NCBI GenBank assembly: GCA_965205485.1
Contig: OZ242180.1
Coordinates: 1,200,535 to 1,264,534, forward strand
DNA from: Candidatus Latescibacterota bacterium
Lineage (GTDB): Bacteria > Latescibacterota > UBA2968 > GCA-2709665
Direction: 5' to 3'
Length of the DNA stretch: 64,000 nucleotides
Shown here: positions 1 through 24,730 of the stretch, in pieces
Layout: every line of letters starts with the position of its first letter
How positions within the stretch are numbered: the stretch's first letter is position 1
Notes under the pieces: generated by a model
The model's database searches: none
Told to the model about the DNA's origin: nothing
Seen by the model: only the letters and a program-made list of their open reading frames with translations
Position numbers and translations under genes: made by a program

Positions 1-70
1 CGTCCGGTTGGAGGGGCATGGGAGGATGGCGCGCCGGCGTTTCGAGGGAAAATACAGTGAGGAGATCTTT

Positions 71-1705
71 ATGAACGTAGCAGATGTGGTAGCCCATATC
101 ATGAAGGCGGAGGGCGTGGAGTACCTGTTCGCCTATCCTGTAAATCCTCTCATCGAGGCCGCGGCCAAGGTGGACATCCGGCCCATTCTCGTCCGGCAGG
201 AACGTATCGGCCTGCATATGGCCGACGCGCTGAGCCGCATGACGTCGGGCAGGCAGATCGGTGTCTTCTGCATGCAGAGCGGCCCCGGGTCGGAGAACGC
301 CTTCGGCGGAGTCGCGCAGGCGTATGGGGATTCTGCGCCGATCCTGGTGCTGCCGCTGGGATATAATAGAACGCTGACCAACGTGCAGCCGAATTTCAAC
401 TCGGCGCTGAATTATCGGCACGTCACCAAGCACTCAGAGCAGGTTATCCTCTCGGAAACCGTGCCCGAAGTGATGCGGAGGGCATTTACGCAGGTGCGCA
501 ATGGACGCCCGCGCCCGGTGCTGGTGGAGTTTCCGGGAGACGTGTTCGACGAGGAGATCGCCGGTCCTTTCGACTACCGCCCCGTGCCTTCGTTGAAAAC
601 GGGTCCGGACCCGCGCGAGGTCGAGAAGGCGGCAATTATGCTCCTGGAAGCCGAGCGACCCGTTATCTACGCCGGGCAGGGCGTGCACTATGCCGAGGCC
701 TGGGATGCCCTGCGCGACCTCTCCGAACTCCTCGAAGCGCCGGTCACCACGAGCCTGGGCGGAAAGAGCGCGTTTCCGGAAAACCACAGACTGTCCCTGG
801 GTTCCGGCGGCAGGTCCATTCCCGGAACCGTGCACCACTTTCTTCAGGAGGCGGACCTGATCTTCGGGATCGGGTGCAGTTTTACGCGTACCAATTTCGG
901 GGTGGCCATGCCAGAGGGGAAGCGCGTGATCCACGCCACGCTGGACCCGGGGGATATCAACAAGGACGTGGAAGTCGAACACGCCCTGGCGGGCGATGCG
1001 AAACTCACCCTGGAGGCCCTGGCGGAGGAGGTTCGTGCGCGCCTGGACGGACAGACGCGGGGTCGTGCGGACCTTGTAGCGAAGGAAATTGCATCTGTGA
1101 AGCACGAATGGCTCTCTCAGTGGATGCCCAAGCTGACGCTGAACGAGGCGCCCCTCTCACCGTATCGGGTGATCCGGGACCTGATGCAAACCGTGGACGT
1201 GCCCAATACGATCATCACCCACGACGCCGGCAGCCCCCGCGATCAACTCTCACCCTTCTGGGAGTCCCATACGCCGCTTTCCTACATCGGCTGGGGAAAG
1301 ACGACGCAACTCGGTTACGGACTCGGCCTGGCGATGGGCGCCAAGCTCGCGTGCCCGGACAAGCTGTGTATCAACGTGTGGGGCGATGCCGCCATCGGGT
1401 TTACGGGAATGGACTTCGAGACGGCCGTTCGTGAACGGATTCCCATTCTGTCGGTCCTCTTCAACAATTTCAGCATGGCAATCGAGCTGCCGATAATGCC
1501 GGTGTCCACGGAAAAATACCGCAGCACGGATATTTCCGGGCACTACGCGGACATGGCCAAAGCGTTTGGAGGCTACGGAGAGCGCGTGGAATCGCCCGAC
1601 GATATCGTCCCGGCAATCGAGCGGGGAATCAGGAAGACGGAGGAAGGCGTTCCGGTGCTGCTGGAGTTCATCACGGCCAAGGAGATCAAGTTCTCGCTGT
1701 ACTGA
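71..1705 (+). CDS. Thiamine-pyrophosphate-dependent enzyme, acetolactate synthase large-subunit-like family
   Basis: 545 aa. The N-terminal TPP-enzyme pyrimidine-binding region (VADVVAHIMKAEGVEYLFAYPVNP...GPGSENAFGGVAQAY) and the C-terminal TPP-binding GDAAIGFTGMDFETAV...NN motif are both present. GGAG sits 6 nt upstream of the ATG at position 71. Confidence 0.85.
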   Translation: MNVADVVAHIMKAEGVEYLFAYPVNPLIEAAAKVDIRPILVRQERIGLHMADALSRMTSGRQIGVFCMQSGPGSENAFGGVAQAYGDSAPILVLPLGYNRTLTNVQPNFNSALNYRHVTKHSEQVILSETVPEVMRRAFTQVRNGRPRPVLVEFPGDVFDEEIAGPFDYRPVPSLKTGPDPREVEKAAIMLLEAERPVIYAGQGVHYAEAWDALRDLSELLEAPVTTSLGGKSAFPENHRLSLGSGGRSIPGTVHHFLQEADLIFGIGCSFTRTNFGVAMPEGKRVIHATLDPGDINKDVEVEHALAGDAKLTLEALAEEVRARLDGQTRGRADLVAKEIASVKHEWLSQWMPKLTLNEAPLSPYRVIRDLMQTVDVPNTIITHDAGSPRDQLSPFWESHTPLSYIGWGKTTQLGYGLGLAMGAKLACPDKLCINVWGDAAIGFTGMDFETAVRERIPILSVLFNNFSMAIELPIMPVSTEKYRSTDISGHYADMAKAFGGYGERVESPDDIVPAIERGIRKTEEGVPVLLEFITAKEIKFSLY

Positions 1706-1789
1706 TCCAGGCGGGGGTTTTCCAGGCGAGACAGGAATCTTACCTGAGACAATAACGAATCTACCATTCAACGGAGGGAGGGCATAACG

Positions 1790-2332
1790 ATGAACAGGCT
1801 GTCGGTTTTCGGTCTCGTAGTCATTGCGGGAATTGCGATATCGTGTGGTGACGACAAACCAACGGCGCCGGGTCAGGACCTGGTTGGATCATGGACGTAC
1901 CAGGGAACCGATTTCAGTTCGACCGCGGCGACCAACCTGCAGGAATACCTGCTGAGTCAGGGGGTGGACGCAGCGGCCGCGCAGCAGTTCGTCACAGAAT
2001 TCAGGAACGAGATGGATAGAGGCTTCCGCGAGACCGGCCTGGAAATCGTGCGATTCAATGAGGACCGGACCTACGAAGATAATTCAGGCAACTCGGGCGT
2101 CTGGTCGGTCCTGGGCGACGTACTCACGATGGTGGAGGAAGACGGGTTTACCATTCAGTGCCAGTACTTTATAGACGGCGAAGACCTGACGCTCATCCTG
2201 ACCAAGGAGCGGTACCTGAATATAATCAGGCAGACGGAAGATGCAGTTGAGCTCGACACGGATTCGCTGGCGCTTCTGGATATCCTTTTTGGAGACGGCG
2301 ACTCCCTGAGGCTCTTCTACAGGGCCAGATGA
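1790..2332 (+). CDS. Lipoprotein of unknown function (family of three copies in this window)
   Basis: Signal peptide followed by the lipobox AISCGDDKPT. It is a paralog of the gene at 2407..2949. Confidence 0.7.
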   Translation: MNRLSVFGLVVIAGIAISCGDDKPTAPGQDLVGSWTYQGTDFSSTAATNLQEYLLSQGVDAAAAQQFVTEFRNEMDRGFRETGLEIVRFNEDRTYEDNSGNSGVWSVLGDVLTMVEEDGFTIQCQYFIDGEDLTLILTKERYLNIIRQTEDAVELDTDSLALLDILFGDGDSLRLFYRAR

Positions 2333-2406
2333 CCCGCGGGAAGACGCTCGCGCCTCACTGATGGATGCGCGAAGCTCAGGTGGCGACAAAGTCGGAGGGC
2401 GTCCTG

Positions 2407-2949
2407 ATGAGCCGGATGTCGGTTTTCGGCCTGACGGTGTTGATCGGTCTTGCGATATCCTGCGGCGATGACAAACCCACGGAGCCGGTTCGCGACCTCG
2501 TTGGATCGTGGACCTACCGGGGTACCGATTTCGCCTCGACCGCGGCGGCCAACTTGCGCGATTACCTGCTGGGGCAGGGCTGGAACCTCGCGTCCGCGCA
2601 GCGGATGGTGGATGGATTCCGGAACGAGATGGAAGCAGGGTTCCGGCATACCGGGTTGTCGGTCCTGCGGTTCAACGCGGACGGGACCTTCGAAGACAAT
2701 TCCGGCAGCAAGGGCGTCTGGTCGGTTCAGGGCGACGTGCTTGCGATCGTCGCCGAGGATGGCTATACCATCCAATGCCAGTACTCTGTGGACGGCACCG
2801 ACCTGACGCTCATCGTGAACAAGGAGCGATACCTGAACCTGATCCGGCAGTCCGAAGGTACGGACGAGATTAGCCCGGAGATTCAGGGGCTTCTGGATAT
2901 TCTGTTCGGTGGCGACAATACGCTCAGGCTGTTCTACAGGGCCGCATAG
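2407..2949 (+). CDS. Lipoprotein, tandem paralog of 1790..2332
   Basis: MSRMSVFGLTVLIGLAISCGDDKPT signal/lipobox, with GGAGGG 7 nt upstream of the ATG. Its 3' 190 bp is repeated at 11252..11442. Confidence 0.7.
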   Translation: MSRMSVFGLTVLIGLAISCGDDKPTEPVRDLVGSWTYRGTDFASTAAANLRDYLLGQGWNLASAQRMVDGFRNEMEAGFRHTGLSVLRFNADGTFEDNSGSKGVWSVQGDVLAIVAEDGYTIQCQYSVDGTDLTLIVNKERYLNLIRQSEGTDEISPEIQGLLDILFGGDNTLRLFYRAA

Positions 2950-3072
2950 CGGGTCGAATGAACCCAGGGAGGGGGTCCGCGAGGGGGTTGAGAATTGCCC
3001 AAGTTGCGGTCCCGAATCCCTTCGCGGTAAATTTGCCAAACCCCACAGGCAGTCGGTTGTCGCGTTCAACGA

Positions 3073-6000
3073 TCAGTTCGACTTTTTGCCGAAAGCGCCT
3101 GCAAAGATGAGAAAATCACTGAACCCGATCGTGCCGTTTCCATCGAGGTCGAATCGCGCGTCATACCCCTCGTCTCGCTGACTCGTCCCGAATTGCGCCG
3201 CAAATTGCAGAAAGTCGGCAAAACCCACGGTCCCGTCGCCGTCGAAGTCCGGATTGCGGATGGTAGGCGGGAGGTACCGCGCGATATCCCACAGCAACAT
3301 CGTGCCGTCTCGGCTGCCACTGATCAGGGTCCTTCCATCCGGCGAAAACGCAACGGAATGAACCTCACTCGAATGTCCGTCCAAGGTGGCGATCTGGTTC
3401 CGGGTTTCCACGTCCCACAACTGGACCGAACCCCTTGACCCCGAAACGAGGGTTTCCCCATCAGGTGAGAACGCCACCGAATAGACAGAACCCGGATTGT
3501 GCATCGTACCGATAAGGGACCGGGTCCCCACTTCCCACAGCTTGATCGTGTGGTCCTCTGCCCCGGAGGCAAGAGTTGAGCCGTCCGGCGAAAACGACAC
3601 CGCACGCACAGCGGACCCGTGTCCGGCCAGCGTGGCAATCTCTGTTCTCGAGGCCACGTCCCACAACCGCGCCGTATTGTCACGACTGCCGCTGGCCAGC
3701 GTGCTCCCATTGGGCGAAAACGACAGGGACATCACATCATCGGTGTGTCCTTCCAGCATGCCGACCACGGCCCGCGTGGCAACGTCCCACAACCTGATCG
3801 TTCGATCCTTGCCCCCACCACCCCCCGTCGCCAACAGCGCACCGCCCGGTGAGAACGCCACCGATGGAATCATACCAGGATGTTTCTTAAGCGTGGCAAT
3901 CTCCCTTCCCGTCTCGAGATCCCACAGATGGAGCCGGTAAAGCGACCCGGCAGCCAGGATGCCGCCGTCAGGCGAAATCGCCACCGATTGCAATACATGT
4001 GGTGTGGCCAAGCTGGCATCCCACGAGAGCGTGGCGATCCTCGACTGTGTTGGCGTGTTCCACAGGTCGACCTGGCTGTTTGCCAATGCCGTGGCGAGGA
4101 TGTTGCCGTCGTCAGAGAGCGCCATCGAGTTGATTTGCACATGCCCGTAGAGCGTGACGGAACTTTCCGTCTCCAGATCCCGCAGCAATATGCCTTGTGA
4201 CGAGGCGGAGGCGAGAGTGACACCGTCCGGAGAAACCGCCATCGACGTGACGCCCCCTCTCACATGCTCATTTCCTCCTATCGAGCCAATCCGATTCCCC
4301 GTTGCCACATCCCAGAGGAGAATCGTACCTCTACTACCCGGGCTCAACCCGGTAAACAGAACGGACCCATCTGAGGAAAACACAACTGACTCGGCATACC
4401 TTACACCAGGGGGGTCCAGCGTGGCGACCTGCGTTTGCGCCGTGACATCCCACAGAATCACCGTGCCATCTCCGTAGGCGCCTGCGGACGCAAGGCGGTC
4501 TCCCTTGGGCGAATACGCCACCGATGTAACTGCTCTTTTGTGTCCTTCAAGGGTAGCGACCTCGGCTTGCGTGGCCATGTCCCACAGCCGTACCGTGCCA
4601 TCATCAAACCCGGATACCAACCGCGAGCCATCCGGAGAAAAGGAAATCGACCCGCGCCGACCGTTTCCCTCCCGCACCACCTCCCACGTGGCAAGCTGGA
4701 CCCTTGTGGCTACGTCCCAAACGCGGATGACCTGATCCCACGAGCCGGAAGCCAGTCTCGAGCCGTCCGGAGAGAAGACCACCGTGACCTCGCCCCGATC
4801 CGCGTGCCACAGCGTGCCGATCCGTTCGCCAGTTTCCACCTCCCTCAGCTCAACCCGGCCGTTGTCGAGTCCCGCCGCCAGCGTGCCGCCGGGGGAGAAC
4901 GACACCGAATGGACCGCACTCCCCGTCGGCAACAGGGCCTGCGCCCGGGACGTGGTCGCCCCGTACAGCCACACGCCGACGGACGTGGCAACCGCCAGCG
5001 TACGTCCATCCGGAGATAGCGCTACCGCACGGTCAGTAATACCCATGGTTCCTTTGCCCAGGCGCGCGGCGGCGCCATATGGCAGATGCCACGCCGTGTA
5101 GTCTCCCTCCAGGGAGGCGACCCCGGTCTCCACGCCTTCGGATCGAAAAGTCGCAACTTCCACGCTGCCGACGAATACCCCCACGGCGTATGTACCCGGA
5201 CGCGGACCCAGGGTAAGTGTCAACTCCGCGTGGCCGTTGGCATCGCTGATCGCCTGCTGAGACGTGTACCGGCCGCTGAGCCTGCCATCGCCACCCGTAA
5301 CCGTGAACGTCACCGACGCATTGGAAAGAGGATTGCCGTGCTGATCCTTGACCAGTACAACGAGTGGCTGTGCAAGTACCGATCCTGGCGCGCCTCGTTG
5401 CCCGTCGCCGGAGACGATCTCCAGCGCATAGGGACGGGGACGCGTCCACCGGGACGTGTTCCACAGGTTGACGGTGTTGTCCCGCGAGCCCGCGGCCAGG
5501 GTGGCGCCATCAGAGGAAAAGACCGCATCCAACACGGAACTCGTTTGCCCGGTCAGCGTTGCGATCCGCTCCCGGGCTCTCACGTCCCAAAGATAAACCG
5601 CTGAATTACCCGCAGCGCCGGCCAGAATCGCACCGCCGGGAGAAAACGCAACCGACTGCCACCCATCGCATTGATAATCGAGGTTGGCAATTCGAACCCG
5701 TGAGGCCACGTCCCACAGCATGATCGTGCTACCCCTGGAGCCGGCAGCCAGCATCGTACCGTCAGGCGAAAATGCGACCGACGTCATCCCGCGGGTATCG
5801 CCTTCAAGCATCACAACCTCTATGCGCGAGGCCGCGTCCCACAAACGCACCGTTCCATCCCGGGACGCAGAGGCCAGCGTGTTCCCATCCGACGAAAACG
5901 CCACGGATCTGACGGAAGCCGTATGTCCTGTGAGGGTGTGTTTTTCCTGAATTGTGGCCACGTTCCACAGCTTGAGTGTGCCGTCGTCCGATCCGGAAGC

Positions 6001-7428
6001 CAGGGTGGCGCCGTCAGGTGAGAACGCCACCGAGTTCACAGCACCCGCGTGTCCTTCCAGTGTGGCGACCCCGGTACGCGCGGCCAAATTCCACAGCTTG
6101 AGTGTGCCGCGGTTCGATCCGGAAGCCAGGGTGGCGCCGTCAGGTGAGAACGCCACTGAGTTCACAGCACCCGCATGTCCTTCCAGTGTGGCGACCCCGG
6201 TACGCGTGGCCACGTTCCACAGCTTGAGCGTGCCGTCGTCCGATCCGGAAGCCAGGATTGCACCGTCAGGTGAGAACGCCACTGAGTTGGCTCCGCGCGT
6301 ATGCCCTTCAAGTGTGGCGATCTGTTCAGGGGAATCCCTCACAAGCTGGAACCGGTGGTTTGCTGTGTTTCCCCGGGTATCAACAGCAGTGATCGTCAAA
6401 GGTTGGGTGGGGTCCTCATGGAGACTATTGTCTTTGCGAGCATAGGTGCTGCCGCTGAAGTCGAATTCTACAATGGCATTTTCTTCACCCTTAACGCCGA
6501 CACAAGCGTATAAGTCCCACGAAGTATAAAGTAGGGACACTTGATGGACCCCGTCTGAATCCCCGATTTCAACACTGATAGGGACTTTGGTAGATCCAGG
6601 AGGATACTTCAGCGGCGTTGTAACTGTGATGGTGGGTGGGGACGCCTGTTCAATCGGGATGTCGGCATTGAAATAGGGATGCACAGCGAGGAATTCAGCG
6701 TGACAGGCAGAAAGCCGAGTCTGTCCCGGTCCCTGGGACATGACGTAATCAAAATTGCTGTTATCGTGCAGGAGACCGAACGCGTGTCCAATTTCGTGTC
6801 CAAAGAGAGCTACGTGGGAGCTCCGGAATTCGCCGGTTATGTACACGGCCCCGCCGGCTTTCCCGACCCGTCGTGCCCTCCCTATCGACCACGGCTCTTC
6901 GTGCGGGCTAGCGCCAATCTTCCCCGAACTGTTATCGATTACGATGACATACACATTCGTTGCCAGGTCGAATGTTGGTGCAAGCTCTCCATCCACAAGC
7001 GATAACGTATTCCTGTAATAATGGCTATCGGGGTGTTGCCCATCCACCCGATGCACCAGCGGCTGGCCGTCGGAATCGGATTCGACCCGGAAGGTCCTGG
7101 CGCCGTAGCCGTGCGCCTCCATCTGCTCGGCATAGAAGGTCTGCACCCGCTTGATCTCCGTCTTCATCGAATCGACCACCTCCTGTCGGTAGGTGCGGTC
7201 GTTGGGCAGGAAGTAGGCCATCCGCACAGTTCGCGGTTCGCCCACGTTAAGGTCGTCCGCACGCTTTGCCGCCGGAAGAGGGTGATCGCGCCACCACTGT
7301 TCGTGGTCGTCGAAGGCGGAGATATGCACGCTGTCAGGAAGGATCGACGACGCACCCACGGCGCCGGGCATCGAAACTACGAGAGCGAGCGACACATATT
7401 GGGCGAAATGACGAACAAGCGTTTTCAT
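3073..7428 (-). CDS. Secreted multidomain protein: metzincin metalloprotease, WD40 propellers, Ig-like domain, more WD40, C-terminal dockerin-like module
   Basis: - N-terminal signal peptide.
- HEIGHAFGLLHD (HExxHxxGxxHD) with a downstream Met-turn region YVMSQG.
- More than 20 WD40 units of the form GH..V.SVAFSPDG..LASGS.D.T..LW.
- Ig-like segment LEIVSGDGQRGAPGS...VTFTVTGGDGRLSG.
- C-terminus PDFDGDGTVGFADFLQFAAQFG...DLDGNGTIGFSDFLIFAGAFG. Confidence 0.85.
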   Translation of the reverse strand: MKTLVRHFAQYVSLALVVSMPGAVGASSILPDSVHISAFDDHEQWWRDHPLPAAKRADDLNVGEPRTVRMAYFLPNDRTYRQEVVDSMKTEIKRVQTFYAEQMEAHGYGARTFRVESDSDGQPLVHRVDGQHPDSHYYRNTLSLVDGELAPTFDLATNVYVIVIDNSSGKIGASPHEEPWSIGRARRVGKAGGAVYITGEFRSSHVALFGHEIGHAFGLLHDNSNFDYVMSQGPGQTRLSACHAEFLAVHPYFNADIPIEQASPPTITVTTPLKYPPGSTKVPISVEIGDSDGVHQVSLLYTSWDLYACVGVKGEENAIVEFDFSGSTYARKDNSLHEDPTQPLTITAVDTRGNTANHRFQLVRDSPEQIATLEGHTRGANSVAFSPDGAILASGSDDGTLKLWNVATRTGVATLEGHAGAVNSVAFSPDGATLASGSNRGTLKLWNLAARTGVATLEGHAGAVNSVAFSPDGATLASGSDDGTLKLWNVATIQEKHTLTGHTASVRSVAFSSDGNTLASASRDGTVRLWDAASRIEVVMLEGDTRGMTSVAFSPDGTMLAAGSRGSTIMLWDVASRVRIANLDYQCDGWQSVAFSPGGAILAGAAGNSAVYLWDVRARERIATLTGQTSSVLDAVFSSDGATLAAGSRDNTVNLWNTSRWTRPRPYALEIVSGDGQRGAPGSVLAQPLVVLVKDQHGNPLSNASVTFTVTGGDGRLSGRYTSQQAISDANGHAELTLTLGPRPGTYAVGVFVGSVEVATFRSEGVETGVASLEGDYTAWHLPYGAAARLGKGTMGITDRAVALSPDGRTLAVATSVGVWLYGATTSRAQALLPTGSAVHSVSFSPGGTLAAGLDNGRVELREVETGERIGTLWHADRGEVTVVFSPDGSRLASGSWDQVIRVWDVATRVQLATWEVVREGNGRRGSISFSPDGSRLVSGFDDGTVRLWDMATQAEVATLEGHKRAVTSVAYSPKGDRLASAGAYGDGTVILWDVTAQTQVATLDPPGVRYAESVVFSSDGSVLFTGLSPGSRGTILLWDVATGNRIGSIGGNEHVRGGVTSMAVSPDGVTLASASSQGILLRDLETESSVTLYGHVQINSMALSDDGNILATALANSQVDLWNTPTQSRIATLSWDASLATPHVLQSVAISPDGGILAAGSLYRLHLWDLETGREIATLKKHPGMIPSVAFSPGGALLATGGGGGKDRTIRLWDVATRAVVGMLEGHTDDVMSLSFSPNGSTLASGSRDNTARLWDVASRTEIATLAGHGSAVRAVSFSPDGSTLASGAEDHTIKLWEVGTRSLIGTMHNPGSVYSVAFSPDGETLVSGSRGSVQLWDVETRNQIATLDGHSSEVHSVAFSPDGRTLISGSRDGTMLLWDIARYLPPTIRNPDFDGDGTVGFADFLQFAAQFGTSQRDEGYDARFDLDGNGTIGFSDFLIFAGAFGKKSN
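5953..6330. repeat. Three near-identical 126-bp tandem DNA repeats encoding consecutive WD40 units
   Basis: Units beginning ttccacagcttgagtgtgccg... recur with a 126-nt period and only a few substitutions. They encode EGHAGAVNSVAFSPDGATLASGS..GTLKLWN repeated. Confidence 0.8.
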
Positions 7429-7943
7429 GGTGTTTTCATCCTTTCAGAAATCGGTCATCCCGGCGTCGTGGCACGTGAATGCCAGCAGCGCAAGCGCGGC
7501 AAAACGTATAGCGACCTTCGATATCGTCACTATGCGAACCCTCCTGTTCGTAACTGCCGAACACGTCCTCCGACCCATCAAACCTGCTTGACGTACCGTC
7601 TGTCTGAAGTATTCCGTTTTATGAATCTGGACCTCTGCGTATTGAGGGGTCGAATCCGGCTTATCCGACGCAGAATCTCGACGAATCAGGGTTCTATCGT
7701 GCCGACGACTTGTCCTTTTGGGTCAACAACGCAAAGAGGTTCCCGGATGAACCCGGCGCCGCTGGTCAACTCATGCTCAGCGCTGGCGGGCGTACCCTCG
7801 ATCCCGGTATGGCGGTTATTCCCGACGCCAATTGTCGCGCCCCGGTCCCAAATGTCCTCGGCGTCATATTGTGGCACGGTTTTTTTTCATCATGGTGATG
7901 TCAGTTGGCGCTTATGACATTGCCCTCGATGGACGAATCACGG

Positions 7944-8351
7944 CTAATTCGACGTCGAACCTGAGCACCGCTGGGACCGTTCCACCACACTCGCGAGCGT
8001 CACTCCGCCGGAACTGACGGCCACCTGGAAATCCCGTCCCGACTCGCACGTGCTCCTAAGGTCGCTGCTGAGATCGAGCTGTGCACAAGCGGCTCTGTAC
8101 GCCGCGTTCAGGGCTTCCTGCTGGGTGGCGCCAGAGCCGGTACCCCGTCCGGTGCCAGACGGTGAACTGAGGCTTCCCAATCTTGAGGGAACCAATGTCA
8201 GCGTCACTTCGCATTGAAATGAACTCAATCCAGTACCGTTGTCCTTTCCGCAGGCAAAGGCGAAGAACAGGGCGAACACGCTGATCCCAAACAAAGCCTG
8301 AAACCCTGACGTTGACCCAATGCGCCCCATCTGACTTGTAAGACGATTCAT
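7944..8351 (-). CDS. Small hypothetical lipoprotein
   Basis: MNRLTSQMGRIGSTSGFQALFGISVFALFFAFACGKDNG is a signal peptide plus lipobox. GGAG lies upstream of the ATG at 8351. The rest is Ser/Gly-rich. Confidence 0.45.
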   Translation of the reverse strand: MNRLTSQMGRIGSTSGFQALFGISVFALFFAFACGKDNGTGLSSFQCEVTLTLVPSRLGSLSSPSGTGRGTGSGATQQEALNAAYRAACAQLDLSSDLRSTCESGRDFQVAVSSGGVTLASVVERSQRCSGSTSN

Positions 8352-8389
8352 CCTGGACTCCTTGATTTGGACCGGCGTGATACCTGATA

Positions 8390-8623
8390 TCATCGACGTG
8401 CTTCGGATCTAAGGGCATTCACGTCTACAAATATGAATACATCCGCGAATTCCGCCGTGCCGTTGCCATCGAGGTCGATCTTCGCATCGGTACCGCGGTA
8501 CGCATCGGCAAAGAGGAAGATTTCCACGGAATCCGTCCTGCCGTCACCGTCGAAGTCTGAGGCTGCAGCTGTGTTTGGAGAGGGTGTGGTCCTTGCGGGC
8601 ATTTTTTTTGAAATCACGTCCAA
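8390..8623 (-). CDS. Stand-alone dockerin-like mini-ORF (77 aa), possibly a gene remnant
   Basis: It consists almost only of SDFDGDGRTDSVEIFLFADAY...IDLDGNGTAEFADVFIFV, i.e. two Ca-loop segments, and has no signal peptide. Confidence 0.35.
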   Translation of the reverse strand: MDVISKKMPARTTPSPNTAAASDFDGDGRTDSVEIFLFADAYRGTDAKIDLDGNGTAEFADVFIFVDVNALRSEARR

Positions 8624-8683
8624 CCGATCCGTGATCGTCCTAGTCGTCCTGTCGGACTAGATTCCGCGACCGGTTCTCCGTTG

Positions 8684-9475
8684 TCAAAACAGACAACCGC
8701 CAATTGTAAGGGCGCGAAAACCGTCCTTGCTATACATTTGATCTTCCGTGTAATTCAGACGGTAACGTCTTTTCTCAGACGGTTTTAGAACGCTCTTCCG
8801 GCCTTCGAATTCTATCTGGCATTCGTCGCTGGTATCATTGTCCAATTCAATGCTGAATCGGCCAAGCAACGGTAGCAGAGCGTCTCCGTCTTTCATGGTA
8901 ATCCGGGCGCTGCTGAATTCGTGGACCTCGTTCGCGAGGTTACGATGTATTTCTCTGTTTACGTACATTCTCAATATCATCGAGTCATCGCTCGTTTCGG
9001 CCGAGAATGAGAACAGTTCCAGATGTGGGATTACAAGAGTAACCGGCACCACGGCGCTAACCATCATAACGCCGTATGAACCCACTCCCGAACCAGCTGA
9101 CATCTGGTGTTTGGATATGAACTCATCCTTTCTCAACGTATATTCTTTCGTCTTATTGCCGTTTTCATCGGTGATGGTTCGGCTTGTCAATGTTCCGCAA
9201 TACTTCACTTCCGGCCTGTTGAAATATCTCCGCAAGACAGGGTTTAACTGATCTATGCTTTCCTGGCAGTTCTTTGCTTTCGAACTGCTTGGAACCAGGA
9301 ACTCCGCCGGCAACAATATTCCGTCCTCGGATCGCCACACGGCTTTCAGACTCGTGATACGAATGAAGAAGTCCGCGTCGATACTTACACAGGCCGAAAA
9401 CAACAACAGCACCAGGACACCAACGAAATCCGTTGCCCGCCGGCCGCTTTTGGCGATATCCAGGTTTGCCATCAT
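8684..9475 (-). CDS. Hypothetical lipoprotein in a compositionally atypical (low-GC) segment
   Basis: N-terminus FVGVLVLLLFSAC. The protein is K/N/S/I/Y-rich. By eye the segment is roughly 48% GC against 60-65% in its neighbours. Confidence 0.55.
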   Translation of the reverse strand: MMANLDIAKSGRRATDFVGVLVLLLFSACVSIDADFFIRITSLKAVWRSEDGILLPAEFLVPSSSKAKNCQESIDQLNPVLRRYFNRPEVKYCGTLTSRTITDENGNKTKEYTLRKDEFISKHQMSAGSGVGSYGVMMVSAVVPVTLVIPHLELFSFSAETSDDSMILRMYVNREIHRNLANEVHEFSSARITMKDGDALLPLLGRFSIELDNDTSDECQIEFEGRKSVLKPSEKRRYRLNYTEDQMYSKDGFRALTIGGCLF

Positions 9476-9546
9476 GCCCTCCAGGTATAACGGTTTAATG
9501 TACCTTCCAGTTATTCCATCTGTACGATGGTCATGATCCCATGCGA

Positions 9547-10749
9547 TCAGGGCAGGCTGACAATCGTCCAGACGTTGCCGCTTCGGGTCAGATGCAGCCT
9601 GTTCAGTCGGACAGTGCCGCCGCTGAACCGCGTATTGCCCAACCGTATCCCTCCGATATTGCCGTCCACAACCAAAACGCTCGCGTCGTTACGAAGCGTG
9701 TATCCTGAACCCTGACATCCTTCTCCCGGTCTCATCGTCAACCCAACCGTGCACGTCTGGCTGGCGCCACCGCCACCGCCGGATCCCGTCACGGTCACAT
9801 CGATCGTCCGTTCGGCACTCAAGCTGCCGGGGTCGGTCGCCGTGACGGTCACCGTCGCGTCCCCGGCCGACCTCGGCGTTATCTCCAATGTCGAATCCGT
9901 AACACTCACTGCCGCCACCGAGGTATCACTGGAAACCGCCGAATAAGTCAACGCGTCGCCGTCAGGATCGCTGAAACCGTGAGACAGGTCCACCGATGCG
10001 GCCGCGCCGCCTGCTGCCAGGGTCTGTGCGGGGATGTCGGCGGCGGCCACAGGCGCTCCGTTCTCTCGCTCAACGATCTGAAACTCGCCACGCAGGGTCA
10101 GTGGCGCGGAACCCGCCTCGGTATAGGTGCTGACGAACGTGCCCGACGTCGTCGATGTGAACGTCAGTTGGATCACGACCTTCTCCCTTTCAGGGTCGTT
10201 TCCCGTCACATCGTAGGTGTACGTAACCGTCCCGGTATTCGGGCCGGTATTGACGTAACGGTAACTGCCCTCGTGGGCGACGCCATCCTCGATTTCCCGT
10301 ATTCGTCCCGGGGACAGGAAGATCAGCCTGAGGCCGGTGGCGGGCGTAACCTGCCTGCCAACCGCGAAACGGTCGAAGGCATTCCGGTCCGCCGGCGCAA
10401 AGCCGGAAGGCGTCGATTCGACCGTCTTGCCAAAATCGGCGGCAAACGCGACAAAGTCCGGGAACCCGATAGCGCCATCGCCATCCAGGTCGAACCGGGC
10501 ATCGAACCCTGCGTCGCCCTGTTGGGACCCGAACACGCTCGCGAATGCCAGGAAATCGGAGAATCCAACAGTCCCGTCACCGTCGAAGTCGGGAGACGGG
10601 ACGCCAACGTCTCTCTGGTTACCCGCCCCCGCATCGACAATCAGATCAAGTGACAACACGGCGTTTGCATTCGAACCGGCGATCGCGTAGTCCAACGTTA
10701 TCAGCACACCCAGGACGGCGATCCACTTTATGCCATTTCTCGTAAACAT
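9547..10749 (-). CDS. Secreted protein: N-terminal dockerin-like module, Ig-like domain, conserved C-terminal Cys domain
   Basis: - AGGAGG lies 7 nt upstream of the ATG at 10749.
- Signal peptide, then SPDFDGDGTVGFSDFLAFASVFG...DLDGDGAIGFPDFVAFAADFG.
- Ig-like segment SDPDGDALTYSAVSSDTSVAAVSV...ATVTVTATD.
- C-terminal CTVGLTMRPGEGCQGSGYTL...SGNVWTIVSLP. Confidence 0.75.
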   Translation of the reverse strand: MFTRNGIKWIAVLGVLITLDYAIAGSNANAVLSLDLIVDAGAGNQRDVGVPSPDFDGDGTVGFSDFLAFASVFGSQQGDAGFDARFDLDGDGAIGFPDFVAFAADFGKTVESTPSGFAPADRNAFDRFAVGRQVTPATGLRLIFLSPGRIREIEDGVAHEGSYRYVNTGPNTGTVTYTYDVTGNDPEREKVVIQLTFTSTTSGTFVSTYTEAGSAPLTLRGEFQIVERENGAPVAAADIPAQTLAAGGAAASVDLSHGFSDPDGDALTYSAVSSDTSVAAVSVTDSTLEITPRSAGDATVTVTATDPGSLSAERTIDVTVTGSGGGGGASQTCTVGLTMRPGEGCQGSGYTLRNDASVLVVDGNIGGIRLGNTRFSGGTVRLNRLHLTRSGNVWTIVSLP

Positions 10750-11026
10750 TGACGTATCCTCCTGTTGTTTAAGGACACCGGCGCCTTGCCACTGTCGCAT
10801 CGTGCTGAAGTTTCGATTGAATGTGCAGCCATACCTGATACCTGATGGGCCATGCATTACTCACGGGGATCCGGGTCGCGGCGACTTCCGGGTCAGAGTA
10901 TGGTCGGGCGAATAACAGGACTACATATAAAGGCAATATGTGTGCCAATGTGTTTCCATGGCATTGAATGACTGTAAGACATTGATTTTATGTGGGATAA
11001 AAGTGTGGCAAGGTACAACAATAAAA

Positions 11027-11132
11027 AGGCCAGGCCGAATTGCAGGGACGATATATCGACCGACAATTCAGCCTGGCTCGCTTATATTATTGAAAAACAG
11101 TTAGATACAACAGGGTCGATATATCGACCCTG
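11027..11132. promoter_or_regulatory. AT-rich divergent promoter region with two copies of the palindrome CAGGG(A/T)CGATATATCGACC
   Basis: gacgatatatcgacc sits at about 11048-11062 inside a 14-bp-arm hairpin (gccaggccgaattg...caattcagcctggc). A perfect palindrome gggtcgatatatcgaccc lies at about 11113-11130. Both are upstream of the minus-strand gene that starts at 10749. Confidence 0.4.
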
Positions 11133-11232
11133 TTCCGGAATTTGGCCCCCTACGGTTGGGTAACGGACTCCGTCATCCCTGCCGGCGACACAGGCCCCGT
11201 GGCCTGATCAGCCGGCAACACAGTTTTATACA

Positions 11233-11442
11233 GTGGAACGATGGGTAGAGGATGGGTTTACGATTCAGTGCCAGTACTCTGTGGACGGCGCGGACCTGAC
11301 GCTCATCTTAGACAAGGAGCGATACCTCAACCTGATCCGGCAGTCCGAGGGTTCGGACGAGATTGAGCCGGAGATACAGGCGCTTCTGGATATTCTGTTC
11401 GGTGGCGACAATACGCTCAGGCTTTTCTACAGCGCTACATAG
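11233..11442 (+). pseudogene. C-terminal fragment of the lipoprotein family (remnant copy)
   Basis: The 69 aa EDGFTIQCQYSVDGADLTLILDKERYLNLIRQSEGSDEIEPEIQALLDILFGGDNTLRLFYSAT is about 88% identical at DNA level to 2761..2949. It has no N-terminal signal or lipobox part. Confidence 0.6.
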
Positions 11443-11611
11443 TGGGTTGAATCCCTGCGCACGTCTCCCTTCCGAACCCCCCCTCAGTTCGCCGGAATGG
11501 TGTAATAAGGCGATGCATTGGGATCACGTGCCGTACTTCCTCCGATGACCAGTTCGAGTCCCGCAGCATGTTCGCGTGCCACGACGTTCGCGCATCTCGG
11601 TGTCCCGGGGT

Positions 11612-12376
11612 TTAGGGGTCATCGGGCCTCGAGGTAAGCGTACCTCGCTTCATTTCGTCGAGCGCGACCCAGTCGCCGTCGAGCCACGCCCTTGGACGGC
11701 GGATGGCTGCGCTTCGAACCTGCCGGGCAAGACAGTGCCGTGCTCTCACTACAAAATCCTCCACGAACATCCCGAAGCGCTTCATCTGTGCACGCCTGGC
11801 GAAGCGTAAAGTGCCCACGAAGCGCCTGCTTTCCGTCGCGAGATCGGTTACGTGCAGGGTGATCGCACTGCCCCCGTTCATCTCCACCTCAGTAACTTCG
11901 AAGCGATATGTCGACTCTACGGTCCATCGATAGTCCAACCTGCACTTTACCCCCGTTCCTTCACCTCCGAAAGGCCCGCACACGACGTCGCTCGCCTTGT
12001 CGATGAGCTTCGCATCGCCAAATCCCGGAGCGTCCCAGACCGAGAGTTGAAGCTGTCGATCGAAACGGTCTCCTCCCCGCTGCAGTCCCGTGTATCCTCC
12101 GTCCCACTGGATTGCTGCGTAAAAGGTACCCGTCGGTTCGGTCAGCGGCGTCATGTCGATCGAGTAACCCGCGCTGGGGTGACTCCGGTTGTGGATCCAG
12201 ATGGTGGCATCTCCTGCGGGAGGATTGGCGGGTGTCGTGGACAGCGTCGCCAGTTCTTTCGTTACGCGGGAGTTTTCGTCTTCCACGGTGATCGATAGTG
12301 TGCCCGCTCCCGGCCAGCCCGCCTCCCAGGTCGTCTGGAAACGCCCAAGGCTGCTTATGCACTTCCAGGAAACCAT
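11612..12376 (-). CDS. DUF3472-like domain protein (hypothetical)
   Basis: The motifs QWDGGYTGLQ, LSVWD, PFGGEGTG, YRWTVESTYRF and FVEDF match the DUF3472 pattern as I remember it. There is no signal peptide. An overlapping frame (11961..12395) suggests a possible N-terminal frameshift. Confidence 0.5.
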   Translation of the reverse strand: MVSWKCISSLGRFQTTWEAGWPGAGTLSITVEDENSRVTKELATLSTTPANPPAGDATIWIHNRSHPSAGYSIDMTPLTEPTGTFYAAIQWDGGYTGLQRGGDRFDRQLQLSVWDAPGFGDAKLIDKASDVVCGPFGGEGTGVKCRLDYRWTVESTYRFEVTEVEMNGGSAITLHVTDLATESRRFVGTLRFARRAQMKRFGMFVEDFVVRARHCLARQVRSAAIRRPRAWLDGDWVALDEMKRGTLTSRPDDP

Positions 12377-12839
12377 CGTCCGCGAGCTCCTTCATTGTCT
12401 CCGCAGGACGTTTCAGACCGATCCAATTACACCAAATAGGAAAACCGTACGTATCCAGCCGGCTTCACGACAACAGGGGCCGGCTGGCCAGAGCCTGTGC
12501 CTGAACTATCGCAATTTTCGACAGTTGGCCGCGCTGTGTTGCCGCAATCCGCGACTTCAAAGAAGCACTTTGCGACGCGATTGCGCGCACGGTTCCGGAT
12601 TTCCCGTGCGTCTCGGCAACGGTTCTTCGAGAATCAAGGCACAGCAGTGATTCGAAAATCATCACCGACACGGGTGCCCTGGAGTCCGTTCAGGTTGAAA
12701 CTCGCGCTGCAAATCCTTCCCGATCCGAACGGCGTATAGTTGTAACAGCCGCCGCCGATACTTCTGAACGACCCTCCGCTGACGGTACAGCTCTGGTTGG
12801 GACGCGAAGCTGGTGGACGCCGTCTGACGACCTCAGTCA

Positions 12840-14900: not shown

Positions 14901-15123
14901 TGCAAGTCCTCCCTTGTATCCGTTTGGATAATTGGCCTGTGGCGCGGTCAGCCGTCAAAACAGGCCCTTACTGCACGCCAAAAAATACTGCCGATGCCCG
15001 TCCCAGTCGAGACGTTCTTGCGTAACCGCCAGACATCGGGATTCGTCGCGGAACCACCCATCTTCAGGTTCTGCACGGAAGATTCGCCAACGACCACCGG
15101 CATTACGTCGTCAGGTTCAACGA

Positions 15124-22700: not shown

Positions 22701-23243
22701 TCGGGTTGCTATTCCCCCTGCGGCGCGATCGATCACATCTGTGCTGATATCGATGACGACGAGGTATACGTTCTGCTCGGTGTCGAAAGCCTGTTCAATT
22801 TCGTTTAGCACCTTAACGAATGTTTGGTTGAGATAGTGGCTATCCGGGTGTCGAGCACTCACGCGATGCACGAGCGGCTCACCCGTGCCGTCGGTTTCAA
22901 ATTGAAAGGTTGTGTCGTCGTAGCCACGCTCATCCATCGAAGCGGCATAGAAGGTCTGAACCTCTCGAATCCGGTCTTTCATATCCTGAACCACTTCGGC
23001 GCGAAAGGGCCGGTCACTGGGCGAAAAGTAAATCATGCGCACCGTGCGTGGTTCGCCCACGTTCAGGTTCGCCGGCCGCTTGGCTGCCGGGAGGGGGTGT
23101 TCCCGGCGCCACTCCTCGTAGTCAAAGGGTTCGTGGAAATGCACGCTGTCGGACTCAGACGTGGACGCGGAAATTCCTGCCGTCGACGTGAGCAGGACAG
23201 CCAGCAGAGTTGAATAAATGGAACTTGAAAGACGCGTTCTCAT
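19752..23243 (-). CDS. Secreted metzincin, WD40 propellers, C-terminal dockerin-like module; paralog of 3073..7428
   Basis: - Signal peptide.
- HELGHTFGLGHD with a YVMSYG Met-turn.
- About 110-aa N-terminal region homologous to 3073..7428 (EWRREHPLPAAKRPANLNVGEPRTVRMIYF).
- WD40 units.
- C-terminus ADFDGDGTVGFPDFLLFVGAYG...DLDGNGTIGFSDLLILAESFG. Confidence 0.85.
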   Translation of the reverse strand: MRTRLSSSIYSTLLAVLLTSTAGISASTSESDSVHFHEPFDYEEWRREHPLPAAKRPANLNVGEPRTVRMIYFSPSDRPFRAEVVQDMKDRIREVQTFYAASMDERGYDDTTFQFETDGTGEPLVHRVSARHPDSHYLNQTFVKVLNEIEQAFDTEQNVYLVVIDISTDVIDRAAGGIATRIGKIGGFALVTSDEMDPWNYHNVVSHELGHTFGLGHDFRHNEYVMSYGNLPDSRLSMCNAGFLAAHPYFDANSPSESGHPPSIELISPLTYPAGSTNVAVKLEVNDPDGLHQVILHVPNSVKACSVLAGERDAVVTFDYDGVIPGDWVRFSSLSEPSVHPLAVEAVDRDGNGERTRFEISELPNDVVRTTPHRLEKIDGANQRGTPGTPLERRFTVEVRDRNDNPLPDVQVAFAVAMGGGRLSGRFRLEHAVTDMNGHAGRRLTLGPRPGTNTVTVSVSGLEPVTFQAMGVGTGISLPATKGDFRTWHLPDDAIARLGKGRLSLGDRAVSFSPDGHRLAAARNIGIWTYDLATLQPAGLMPAEHLIESMAFSPDGAMIAWSERVYFDTNIKVWDTTTNTPVAGLSFLGDWGGWGRWPQGVAFSPDGGLLACVSSDNSIVMWDTGTWQRVATYEGKPSRAVLDYNPLAFSPDGRLLAAADNNHHTISLWDVAAHEKAGTLTGHKFFVRSISFSPDGQTIASGSFDRTVRLWDAATHTNLATLYGHTDDVRSVSYSPDGSTVASASSDGTIRLWDAGSHESVATLYGQTGEVRSVSFSTDGNTLVSASFDGRVDLWDVQARGIVDRIEKESATTSVAFSPLGGIFASGSDDRTITLWDVETHEKVASLEGHASGVTSLAFLRNGTLVSGAFEEIRVWDLAMGTYVAVARHFRGGCVINTLVVSPDGATVASGGRDELVLWDVATGAQSAVSVNAPLVSYAPDGSVLATKSVDGFIQLWDAATLENLNTVYQGFLGVGGNLGFLAFSPDGTTIASGTEKGPRIDSVVLLYDVATGERVATLEKPNGSQLFSGAFSPDGRILAAGSHKGTVVLWNMETLEEIATFYGHRHDVRSVSYSPDGRMLGSASDDGTMLLWDLTPYIVRPTSIADFDGDGTVGFPDFLLFVGAYGLSRGDAGYDERFDLDGNGTIGFSDLLILAESFGQGG

Positions 23244-24469: not shown

Positions 24470-24692
24470 TGTCCGAATCTCAACCGGCAATGCCGGTGAG
24501 CCAGAGACTGAGTTCCTGGTGGCGTGGATCTGCCATCGTGAAGAGAGAGTGGGGACGGTTTTTCTGGCGGAGAAGGAGGGTGGGAGGGAGTTCATCGCGG
24601 AGGACGAAGAGACCCTGGTGATGCTCGCCGCTCAGGCTGCCGCAGCGCGAGACATCAGACGCGAAGTGGGATGGGATCGCGGAATCGAGTGA
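24470..24692 (+). pseudogene. Possible remnant of a GAF-domain gene in an AT-rich spacer
   Basis: A short frame encodes ...VGTVFLAEKEGGREFIAEDEETLVMLAAQAAAA, which looks like a GAF domain C-terminus, and then degenerates. There is no complete gene. Confidence 0.25.
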
Positions 24693-24730
24693 CGAGGCGG
24701 AGATGCCTTACCTACTATTGTCTGTACGCT

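Follow-up and report, generated by a model that had tools for sequence, protein, structure and literature searches.

An 8.3-kb block of genes in the genome of a Candidatus Latescibacterota bacterium is bracketed by two diverged direct repeats of the 3′ end of a lipoprotein gene, which raises the question of whether the block was inserted there and, if so, by what route. We analysed it in a window of 64,000 nucleotides of contig OZ242180.1, to which all positions refer (Table 1), and in 24 loci of relatives (designated L001, L002 and so forth), of which L001 was viewed only to 10 kb past the lipoprotein gene. The closest relatives of the window include MAG bins RHO1-RHO3.

The repeated 3′ end of lipoB

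The lipoprotein gene, lipoB, is the second of a tandem pair that follows a gene for a TPP-dependent enzyme; its start was placed at ATG 2407 from the open reading frame and the alignment to lipoA, and 13 loci have an ortholog in that place. The sole Pfam signal in the pair is a weak match of lipoB to Lipocalin_4 (E 0.0097, below cut-off), with none on lipoA. A repeat search of the window delimits the repeat as 205 nt of ungapped alignment at 88% identity (2755-2959 versus 11248-11452), slightly longer than the roughly 190 bp at about 88% described in the initial annotation, and the 41-nt identical run claimed there is found in both copies. Just 3′ of the stop codon there is a 68-nt indel, after which homology resumes, to ~3027 and ~11468 (‘CCCGAATCCCTTCGC’ near 3013-3027 versus ‘TTGAATCCCTGCGC’ near 11455-11468). 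A third copy at 2138-2342, 71% identical, is the 3′ end of lipoA. The self-comparison proposed as a check was run by BLAST of positions 1-3030 against the rest of the window, and matched only one extra copy, the downstream one, here called deltaB.

The first codon of deltaB corresponds to codon 116 of the 180 in lipoB, and the fragment is contained in a 69-codon ORF with a GTG start (11233..11442), after which the spacer tail runs to ~11468. The 5′ two-thirds of the gene are missing, as had been claimed: the self-BLAST finds no such sequence upstream of 11245. The breakpoint is identical in the window, L015, L021 and the P0138 contig, four independent assemblies, and therefore reflects a single event and no assembly artefact. 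deltaB is changed at positions invariant in functional lipoB orthologs – each of its copies has one to four changes at residues invariant in nine of these – and it is, to judge from its sequence, a non-functional fragment undergoing decay.

Between deltaB and an AT-rich region stands a 78-nt remnant of a WD40-repeat gene. It is 79.5% identical to L021, where it continues leftwards in frame into a 431-aa WD40 ORF (‘...AAGGDDGTVTIWD...’) that has itself lost its 5′ end; the neighbours of the joint in L021, pntB and an amidase-like gene, are unrelated. Because the WD40 remnant abuts deltaB, the scar can be read as two gene interiors joined illegitimately. No uninterrupted, parental WD40 gene turned up among the WD40 genes of the window, which are only ~30% identical, or in a metagenome pattern scan.

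The AT-rich stretch with paired palindromes reported before the downstream repeat is likewise present, with a GC content of 0.49-0.53 over ~10600-11400. A CGATATATCG-centred palindrome occurs there twice, at 11043-11061 and 11109-11134 (the second a perfect 26-mer), against 0.09 occurrences expected by chance, with one in each arm of an inverted-repeat pair (11033-11061 / 11113-11146). Across the window and the 24 loci the region is matched only in L015, and it is recognisable in translated P0138. We rejected it as the end of an element; it belongs upstream of the dockerin/Ig gene.

Table 1. Positions of genes, repeat copies and remnants at the lipoB locus
Feature	Position	Strand	Description
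TPP-dependent enzyme gene	8..1705	+	Pfam TPP_enzyme_N/M/C; conserved left flank, synteny anchor
lipoA	1790..2332	+	180-aa lipoprotein, lipobox AISCG; tandem paralog of lipoB
lipoB	2407..2949	+	Full-length 180-aa lipoprotein gene
Repeat copy 1	2755..2959	+	Last 65 codons of lipoB plus 10 nt
Spacer after lipoB	2950..3027	.	Holds a ~68-nt stretch present or absent among relatives
Variable island, ~30.6 kb	~3028..33660	-	Secreted repeat-protein genes; the 8.3-kb block is the proximal part
Secreted metallopeptidase-WD40 protein, 1451 aa	3073..7428	-	Adjoins lipoB, as in L001
Two small ORFs	7944..8393 and 8390..8623	-	149-aa putative lipoprotein and 77-aa ORF
Low-GC gene	8684..9475	-	263-aa putative lipoprotein
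Dockerin-like/Big_9 protein, 400 aa	9547..10749	-	Pfam Big_9, EF-hand/Dockerin_1
AT-rich upstream region of dockerin/Ig gene	10750..11169	.	Fold z-score -5.7
WD40-repeat gene remnant, 78 nt	11170..11247	-	5′-truncated; left partner of joint
deltaB (repeat copy 2)	11248..11452	+	5′-truncated lipoB 3′ fragment, 65 codons plus stop
Inactivated DUF3472/BPSS1860 gene	11487..12376	-	tblastn with intact 457-aa L015 protein
Possible second anchor remnant (tentative)	12590..12603	.	Spacer-tail copy (GGTTCCGGATTTC)
LRR + dockerin-like protein, 686 aa	12840..14900	-	Next island gene; Pfam LRR_4, LRR_8

Genes of the block and the variable island

The gene content that the initial annotation gave for the block – a metzincin-WD40-dockerin gene, two small ORFs, a low-GC gene and a dockerin/Ig gene – stands. 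The 1451-aa protein begins with a zinc metallopeptidase (HEIGHAFGLLHD motif), carries WD40 propellers and ends in an EF-hand/dockerin-like module, with Pfam matches to WD40, PF12044, Reprolysin_4 and EF-hand/Dockerin_1 and a PDB match to an O-glycan protease (6z2o, E 2.5e-5). Pfam signals in the small ORFs are weak (FG-GAP/EF-hand-like); the 77-aa ORF carries dockerin-like DxDGDG motifs, and a homolog of the 149-aa gene (75%) comes directly after a dockerin/Ig paralog in L018. The low-GC gene (GC 0.48 versus ~0.60 in its surroundings) has no family match in Pfam, NCBIfam and PHROGs scans of the block ORFs; its family is lineage-restricted, with five proteins found, and the L001 chromosome holds a 77% homolog. 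The dockerin/Big_9 ORF extends to 10857, with a likely start at ATG 10749, which has an AGGAGG ribosome-binding site and corresponds to the Met at which P0001 and P0137 (400 aa) begin. Paralogs of this gene occur in unrelated contexts.

No integrase, excisionase, transposase or phage gene was found in 2950-11247 by Pfam, NCBIfam and PHROGs scans of all block ORFs of at least 120 aa in 7429-11247, the 77-aa ORF and neighbouring genes, and Pfam was likewise negative for all of these among the ORFs scanned from 23 to 48 kb. The block has no tRNA and no Rfam match, and the repeat search found no inverted repeats pairing its ends. Insertion of a transposon, IS or MITE is thus rejected, there being no terminal inverted repeats, no transposase, and a duplication of at least 205 nt of a gene; a discrete mobile element is rejected for want of mobility genes in the block. 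Next to deltaB stands a truncated WD40 gene, continuing as an ORF in L021, and not an element end.

The block is the proximal part of a larger, hypervariable island, which in this lineage adjoins the conserved genes TPP, lipoA and lipoB, encoding WD40, LRR, fn3 and cadherin domains, peptidases M60 and M8, and dockerin-like modules (all by Pfam). L022 is without the island, its lipoB being joined to the homolog of window 33669 onwards, and L023 retains only remnants of 24730-24992 and 32097-32308. Gene order after lipoB and the contents of the island differ in every genome compared, and an alignment of eight junctions shows the gene arrangements all diverging right past the spacer end, ‘...CCGAATCCCT(T/G)CGC’. 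Lipoprotein paralogs vary too, with 5′ fragments in L009, L013 and L023 and three tandem copies in L007, L008 and L023. The block is composite: its left and right halves have different matches among relatives.

Eukaryotic-like proteins (ELPs) with WD40, LRR and FN3 domains are reported in sponge-associated Latescibacterota MAGs (PMC12993501). The likeness to the ELP gene sets of those sponge symbionts lies in the domain families and the phylum Latescibacterota; that paper counts ELP domains per MAG without mention of dockerin, and its relevant passages describe no clustering in an island. How one island turns over between strains, and the dockerin-like module that its genes share, are described here from the window and the loci only.

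Empty sites and the histories of the two copies

An empty site, for which the initial annotation had advised looking in related genomes, is present in four species representatives (L003, L004, L005 and L010), in which lipoB is followed by a short spacer and the DUF3472 gene, and also in L020, a second assembly like L005. In these genomes TPP-lipoA-lipoB leads directly into the homolog of window 11453-12351, and both repeat copies of the window align to the single lipoB 3′ end. The empty sites support the earlier reading of the block as an insertion or duplication-mediated acquisition. An ancestral arrangement, with lipoB, spacer and DUF3472 gene in that order, is kept in the four species representatives, and the 8.3-kb block sits between lipoB and this former neighbour. 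In principle, empty-site genomes could be secondary deletions between the repeats, and the direct repeats flanking the block could still drive its deletion. The DUF3472 gene is intact in L003, L004, L005, L010 and L015; in the window an in-frame deletion has removed ~157 of its internal codons (the core of the signal peptide, the dockerin and the Ig domain), there is a frameshift near 11603-11615, and its translation starts ‘MVSWKCISSLG|RFQTTW’.

The right half of the block is confined to near relatives: L015, the only one that has it in DNA, with the same truncated copy and the same breakpoint, and one further contig with matching proteins. The left half extends to L001, which has the metallopeptidase-WD40 gene directly after lipoB and the spacer (window 54-7304 aligns contiguously with it at 90%), and the homolog of the low-GC gene on the L001 chromosome suggests that this genome may bear a similar joint further on. 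Identity of the TPP protein is 87-98% in L001-L012, L020, L022 and L023. The L010 TPP gene is 94.6% identical, yet L010 has an empty site, so that presence of the joint does not track the TPP-gene tree.

The two repeat copies evidently have distinct histories. Over its coding part (195 nt, 2755-2949), copy 1 shares 96.9% identity with the lipoB 3′ end of L002 and 94.4% with that of L001, and no lipoB matches deltaB at more than 89.7%. deltaB is of the B type, with 88-90% identity to lipoB orthologs versus 72-76% to A-type or middle paralogs. Its right flank is an outgroup to L003, L004, L005 and L010 (86.6-88.4%, versus 89-93% among those four), whereas the TPP gene on the left clusters with L001 and L010 at ~95%. 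The dN/dS of deltaB against functional orthologs is 0.13-0.31 on small counts (~20 differences), suggesting that most of its divergence arose within a working gene; between deltaB copies it rises to 0.30-0.78, on similarly small counts (~20 differences). Identity of the window to L015 is patchy (79-100%), which shows later gene conversion that blurs these histories.

Origin of the block and of deltaB

We consider that deltaB is probably a recombination scar, left when a homologous exchange and an illegitimate join placed island genes beside lipoB, and homology-anchored recombination with one illegitimate end is the most likely mechanism. The left side of the block is collinear with relatives through TPP-lipoA-lipoB, and the right joint fuses unrelated gene interiors. 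Donor DNA with lipoB, its spacer and island genes – the metallopeptidase-WD40 gene and others – would have been joined to the ancestral arrangement by two events, a homologous exchange within or upstream of lipoB, and an illegitimate join of the interior of a WD40 gene to the interior of the resident lipoB. The product would have had a full lipoB, the new genes, a 5′-truncated WD40 gene, deltaB with its spacer, and the DUF3472 gene. Subsequent rearrangements would have put the dockerin/Ig cassette, together with the AT-rich region upstream of it, in place of all but 78 nt of the WD40 remnant, removed the spacer after deltaB and crippled the DUF3472 gene. The molecular route may have been homology-facilitated illegitimate recombination (HFIR) of related-strain DNA, or unequal illegitimate exchange between sister chromosomes. 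The scar is of an ordinary kind and reveals no new molecular system.

HFIR is reported from natural transformation in Acinetobacter, Pseudomonas stutzeri and Streptococcus pneumoniae (references in PMC5361080; PMC3240628). The locus resembles it in having one homologous anchor (TPP-lipoA-lipoB), one non-homologous joint and new DNA beside the anchor, with no dedicated recombinase involved. An insert of at least 8 kb, and duplication of the anchor end instead of a deletion in the recipient, place it at the unusual end of the experimental reports.

Sister-chromosome exchange could also have produced the joint by intragenomic tandem duplication, in which an unequal illegitimate exchange joined a distal WD40 gene to mid-lipoB and duplicated the interval, the two units then diverging through gene loss and replacement. 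The joint has the b|a structure of such a novel junction, linking a truncated downstream gene to a truncated upstream gene, and the process needs no foreign machinery in an island that demonstrably gains and loses genes. We nevertheless think this origin unlikely, since beyond the lipoB 3′ end and spacer the supposed units have nothing in common, divergence between the copies is 11% at a dN/dS of ~0.26 while the window lipoB is 97% identical to that of L002, and L010 (94.6% in the TPP gene) has an empty site that would need later loss or conversion.

Phage 21 and e14 in Escherichia coli icd are integrated elements flanked by diverged copies of a gene end. A site-specific integrative element targeting the lipoB 3′ end and carrying a surrogate for it would similarly account for the 88% direct repeats that flank the block, the intact gene restored on one side, the exact empty sites, the common breakpoint in four assemblies, and the identity between window and L015 of 96-100% in parts of the block, above the 79-94% of the flank at 11201-11800. 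There is, however, no integrase or other recombinase and no phage gene in the ORFs scanned in and around the block; deltaB is abutted by a truncated gene of host type; the cargo genes are like those elsewhere in the island, and the metallopeptidase gene among them adjoins lipoB in L001 also; and the lipoB-proximal copy shares 97% identity with lipoB in L002, a genome free of the block. Such an element is therefore very improbable.

Equally improbable is descent from an old tandem lipoprotein family A-B-C, with the island between B and C and the third member decayed, a history in keeping with the varying number of paralogs and with the truncated ones in L009, L013 and L023. The empty-site alignments already contradict this history: what follows deltaB is the sequence that flanks lipoB in the empty-site genomes, and deltaB is of the B type. 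Upstream it borders on a truncated WD40 gene and not on decayed lipoprotein sequence, the third paralogs of L007 and L008 adjoin lipoB and are of another type, and the arrangement that would contradict an insertion – the block between two full-length paralogs – was sought in the 24 loci and seen in none of the genomes compared. A chimeric misassembly of similar lipoB regions can be dismissed as scarcely credible, for although the source is probably metagenome-derived and the same samples contain several closely related strains, the identical joint recurs in four separately assembled records that differ by 4-20% around it, and collapse of strains would not fuse lipoB to sequence other than lipoB, as this joint does.

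The recombination scar that we favour has a precedent in type VI secretion system (T6SS) effector-immunity arrays and rhs loci, for which a homologous anchor, an illegitimate far end and displaced 3′ remnants have been proposed (PMC5361080); orphan 3′ fragments at rhs/CDI loci are described in that paper with reference to Jackson 2009, Poole 2011 and Koskiniemi 2014. The shared features are a conserved upstream anchor gene with modules inserted beside it, strain-variable arrays, and older material pushed downstream with a 5′-truncated 3′ remnant. At the lipoB locus, by contrast, a small lipoprotein gene, which is convergent with the cargo, serves as anchor in place of the 5′ part of a cargo gene, the cargo consists of secreted repeat proteins and not toxin-immunity pairs, and there is one clear remnant (deltaB) plus a doubtful 14-22-nt match at 12590-12611 in place of a string of orphans. 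No further anchor remnants were seen within 10 kb after lipoB in the other loci. The match at 12590 is a spacer-tail copy that coincides with the start of homology to the joint of spacer and LRR gene in L002, with 22 nt identical to L002; the motif by itself is not significant (8 matches versus 4.7 expected). The LRR gene lies directly past the lipoB spacer in L002 and past the DUF3472 gene in L010.

A more speculative and doubtful extension is that the lipoB 3′ end and spacer form a recurrent, recombinase-free capture point at which cassettes of secreted repeat proteins are stacked serially, deltaB with its spacer tail (11248-11468) and 12590-12603 being the footprints of two captures. Each capture would then push older cassettes outward and leave anchor remnants behind, and the displacement-array mechanism of toxin loci would extend to symbiont host-interaction genes. 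The large secreted repeat proteins of this sponge-associated lineage are thought to mediate host contact, and the scar offers a dated, sequence-level example of strains exchanging and reshuffling the genes for large secreted WD40, LRR, cadherin and peptidase proteins. Turnover of this kind can do without mobile-element machinery, through ordinary homologous plus illegitimate recombination at a single conserved border, and the remnants that it leaves are usable as markers of strain history.

The truncated lipoprotein copy and its joint

A repeat search of the window finds a three-member family, in which the copies ending lipoA and lipoB – tandem paralogous lipoprotein genes with 180-aa products that share 66% identity and an AISCG lipobox – are joined by a third copy, deltaB, comprising only the final 65 codons and the stop codon (Table). 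DeltaB matches the lipoB copy at 88% over 205 nt without gaps, including an identical run of 41 nt, and homology resumes beyond a 68-nt indel immediately downstream of the stop codon, reaching ~3027 and ~11468, respectively; the repeat is real and far exceeds chance origin. Upstream of deltaB there is no resemblance to the remainder of the lipoprotein gene, at either the DNA or the protein level. Searches for exact matches to the lipoA and lipoB proteins retrieved no record. The initial annotation had reported this direct repeat and the absence of the 5′ part of the gene from the second copy, and both observations hold, as do its list of genes between the repeats (a metallopeptidase-WD40 gene, two small ORFs, a low-GC gene and a dockerin/Ig gene), its description of one of them (8684..9475) as low in GC, and its AT-rich tract with palindromes ahead of the second copy.

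The same truncated copy is present in three other assemblies: L015 (a 7.8-kb ENA contig), a second ENA contig of 27.9 kb, and the JGI contig L021. Across much of 8682-11247, L015 and the window agree at 96-100%, with bins down to 86%. From left to right L015 carries the low-GC and dockerin/Ig genes, the AT-rich region and the shared breakpoint, then deltaB, the retained spacer and an intact DUF3472 gene. The 27.9-kb contig encodes the proteins P0134, P0136 and P0138, of which P0138 reads through the AT-rich region into deltaB; its deltaB peptide is identical to that of L021, but its left side is window-type. L021 has 11170-11604 in common with the window (89%), and on its minus strand the 78 nt left of deltaB are in frame with, and extend leftwards into, a 431-aa WD40-repeat ORF (containing ‘...AAGGDDGTVTIWD...’) with no N-terminal part of its own. 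Because the same 78 nt continue as a WD40 ORF in L021, the corresponding segment of the window is a WD40 gene remnant. The parental gene was not found in our searches, which included a metagenome scan with the remnant that returned no match. In L021 the joint, comprising the WD40 remnant, deltaB and the tail of the DUF3472 gene, sits between pntB and SBP_bac_5/amidase-like genes, neither side having a counterpart in the window (L021 1-4770), and this placement could reflect translocation, transfer or a chimeric contig.

The original event would have joined two gene interiors, one in a minus-strand WD40 gene and the other in plus-strand lipoB, where the break falls at codon 116. The rest of the WD40 gene would then have given way, at a second breakpoint that L015 and the 27.9-kb contig share with the window, to the dockerin/Ig cassette with its upstream region. 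To the right of deltaB, the DUF3472/BPSS1860 gene of the window has lost ~157 codons in frame – removing the signal peptide core and the dockerin-like and Ig-like parts – and carries a frameshift; it is intact (457 aa) in five relatives (L003, L004, L005, L010 and L015) and is inactivated here. With the WD40 remnant, deltaB and the damaged DUF3472 gene in succession, 11170-12376 is a chain of gene remnants.

Coordinates of features in the window, with counterparts in related loci
Feature	Position	Strand	Remarks
TPP-enzyme gene	8..1705	+	
Segment shared with L001	54-7304		contiguous, 90%; metallopeptidase-WD40 gene follows lipoB in L001
lipoA	1790..2332	+	repeat member 2138-2342 (71%)
lipoB	2407..2949	+	repeat member 2755-2959 (reference)
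Variable island	about 3028-33660		
Module as DNA repeats	3084-3252, 10425-10593, 14090-14258, 15135-15303		~70-80% identity
Other module-bearing genes	3073..7428, 15124..19755, 31891..33012	-	
Metallopeptidase domain	6400-7428	-	
Low-GC gene	8684-9475	-	GC 0.48
Dockerin/Ig gene	9547..10749	-	module-bearing
Inverted-repeat pair	11033-11146		
Right CGATATATCG palindrome	11109-11134		
Second breakpoint	~11169		
WD40 remnant	11170-11247		
deltaB	11248-11452	+	repeat member (88%)
Empty-site right flank	11453-12351		its homolog (DUF3472/BPSS1860 gene) comes directly after lipoB and a short spacer in L003, L004, L005, L010, L020
DUF3472/BPSS1860 gene	11487..12376	-	frameshift near 11603-11615
Spacer-tail copy	12590-12603		
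Identity to L002 joint	12590-12611		22 nt
LRR gene	12840..14900	-	module-bearing; follows lipoB in L002
Remnants kept in L023	24730-24992, 32097-32308		only these follow lipoB in L023, then right flank of L022
Island-distal flank	33669 onwards		~0.5 kb after lipoB in L022

The empty site and the histories of the two copies

A scan with lipoB, restricted to one genome per species, returned 14 loci; the MAGs that carry them all bear the label Candidatus Latescibacterota, Gemmatimonadota (bins RHO1-RHO3) or uncultured bacterium. Metagenomes, scanned with the same query, gave one locus, L023. The left flank is the same in 13 of the 14, with two or three lipoprotein paralogs after the TPP-enzyme gene, and the sequence after lipoB differs from genome to genome among the loci compared (Table). 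In five loci, including L020 (a second assembly resembling L005), both repeat copies of the window align to a single lipoB 3′ end. The initial annotation had proposed that the 8.3-kb block looks like an insertion or a duplication-mediated acquisition and pointed to an empty site in relatives as a check; this exact empty site and the presence/absence polymorphism support the proposal. The two repeats could also mediate deletion of the block, and an empty-site genome could in principle be the product of such a deletion.

Several candidate lipoprotein fragments have other explanations. P0123 is the normal lipoB of a genome resembling L005, with a frameshift in assembly L020 (aa 8-79 and 76-180 in two reading frames), and P0126 looks like a frameshifted lipoB in the usual position on the 3x-coverage contig L022; P0124, P0125 and P0127 are C-terminal pieces of lipoA type. 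The idea that L010 lipoB is an excision chimera of lipoB and deltaB was dropped, its deltaB-like states being mostly majority states among orthologs.

The two copies differ in their affinities. The copy within lipoB is 96.9% identical to lipoB of L002 and 94.4% to that of L001, and the TPP gene places the window with L001 (95.6%) and L010 (94.6%). DeltaB reaches at most 89.7% with any lipoB (88.7% with its own neighbour), and for the right flank (11453-12400) identity is 86.6-88.4% between the window and L003, L004, L005 and L010, and 89-93% within this group of four. Because dN/dS between deltaB and functional orthologs (0.13-0.31) matches the range among functional orthologs, most of its 11% divergence predates the loss of working-gene status. 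Among the three deltaB copies dN/dS is 0.30-0.78, and residues that do not vary among nine functional orthologs are replaced at 1-4 positions in each copy; these values fit relaxed constraint since truncation. Identity between the window and L015 is patchy, with dips from 96-100% to 79-94%, notably in 11201-11800, which indicates later conversion or recombination tracts. These comparisons speak for a joint of two diverged lineages rather than a recent duplication within one genome, small counts and mosaicism weakening the case, and we regard an intragenomic tandem duplication as improbable.

A variable island of large secreted proteins

The block is the proximal part of an island of ~30.6 kb, because relatives differ after lipoB and L022 and L023 reach the 33669-type flank; the island is absent from L022 and reduced to remnants in L023. 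Its genes lie on the minus strand and encode very large secreted proteins, with WD40, LRR, fn3, cadherin, peptidase M60 and M8, and zinc metallopeptidase among their domains. A ~56-aa EF-hand/dockerin-like module recurs in the five island genes examined and suggests a common anchoring or display system. A 1451-aa WD40 protein has an N-terminal zinc metallopeptidase domain with a HEIGHAFGLLHD motif, scoring above cut-offs for Pfam PF12044 and Reprolysin_4; among solved structures, Akkermansia-type O-glycan proteases come closest (6z2o, E 2.5e-5), a hint that it may cleave mucin-type glycoproteins.

The product of the low-GC gene, a putative lipoprotein, matches no family and has only five homologs among 5.8 billion proteins, one of which (77%) is encoded on the L001 chromosome, read to 10 kb past lipoB. 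The gene may have entered the block later, because in L018 the homolog of 7944..8393 comes directly after a dockerin/Ig paralog, without the low-GC gene. The dockerin/Ig paralogs of L016-L019 and L024 share coding sequence alone, up to about 10600-10670, and sit in unrelated places, and these loci were rejected as the donor context of the right end of the block. Distant lipoA/lipoB homologs (27-33%) lie just upstream of the paralog in L016 (158-1649), on another contig; the lipoprotein family and island-type genes may be linked more generally. At the island border, a further lipoprotein paralog is represented by 5′ fragments of 42-58 codons in L009 (10618-10794), L013 (371-496) and L023 (3086-3211). 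Because these mirror the 3′ fragment of the window, the lipoprotein array is a recurrent breakpoint.

Mechanism and minor sequence elements

The exact empty site is accompanied by one non-homologous joint of two gene interiors and by collinear homology on the other side. The block would have been placed beside lipoB by recombination anchored in the conserved TPP-lipoA-lipoB genes, with an illegitimate far end, either through homology-facilitated illegitimate recombination of related-strain DNA or through unequal illegitimate exchange between sister chromosomes. An explanation along these lines has been put forward for T6SS effector-immunity arrays and rhs orphan fragments (PMC5361080). Site-specific integration, with deltaB as a surrogate 3′ end, fails: there is no recombinase – no integrase, transposase or phage gene lies in or beside the block – and the partner at the joint is a truncated gene of host type. 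A tRNA-linked island was rejected because a tRNA/tmRNA scan of the whole window found none, and an Rfam search of 1-16000 at a permissive threshold gave no match. An old family of three lipoprotein paralogs fails because deltaB is B-type and has the downstream flank of lipoB itself, and misassembly because four assemblies have the joint in common. What the window shows is a scar of recombination within a hypervariable island whose genes are of host-interaction type. Events of this kind are known; the present one adds a new example and can serve as a marker of island history.

The AT-rich region contains an inverted-repeat pair of ~30 nt, each arm with its own CGATATATCG palindrome, the right one a perfect 26-mer. 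The region folds far better than shuffles (z-scores -5.7 and -4.9), and the pair is kept in L015 with one base more; it has no further occurrence in the window or the 24 loci, and a promoter/terminator scan of 10600-11700 gave nothing beyond shuffled expectation. The pair does not mark a terminus of the inserted block, because it lies ~100 nt from the joint and precedes the dockerin/Ig start codon by ~290-400 nt; upstream of that gene it could act as an operator pair, form a cruciform or represent a small (MITE-like) inserted repeat.

The repeat search found no repeated inverted repeats between cassettes, the 14-nt spacer-tail motif right of the DUF3472 gene is not significant by itself, and an attC-like or shared motif between cassettes was rejected on these grounds. 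Spacer remnants do not recur in other loci. The spacer-tail copy lies exactly where homology to the L002 spacer/LRR joint begins, and hints at an earlier event of the same sort as the deltaB joint. The match to the L002 joint of lipoB spacer and LRR-gene flank includes this third copy, GGTTCCGGATTTC, and may be the footprint of a former arrangement in which the LRR gene adjoined lipoB.
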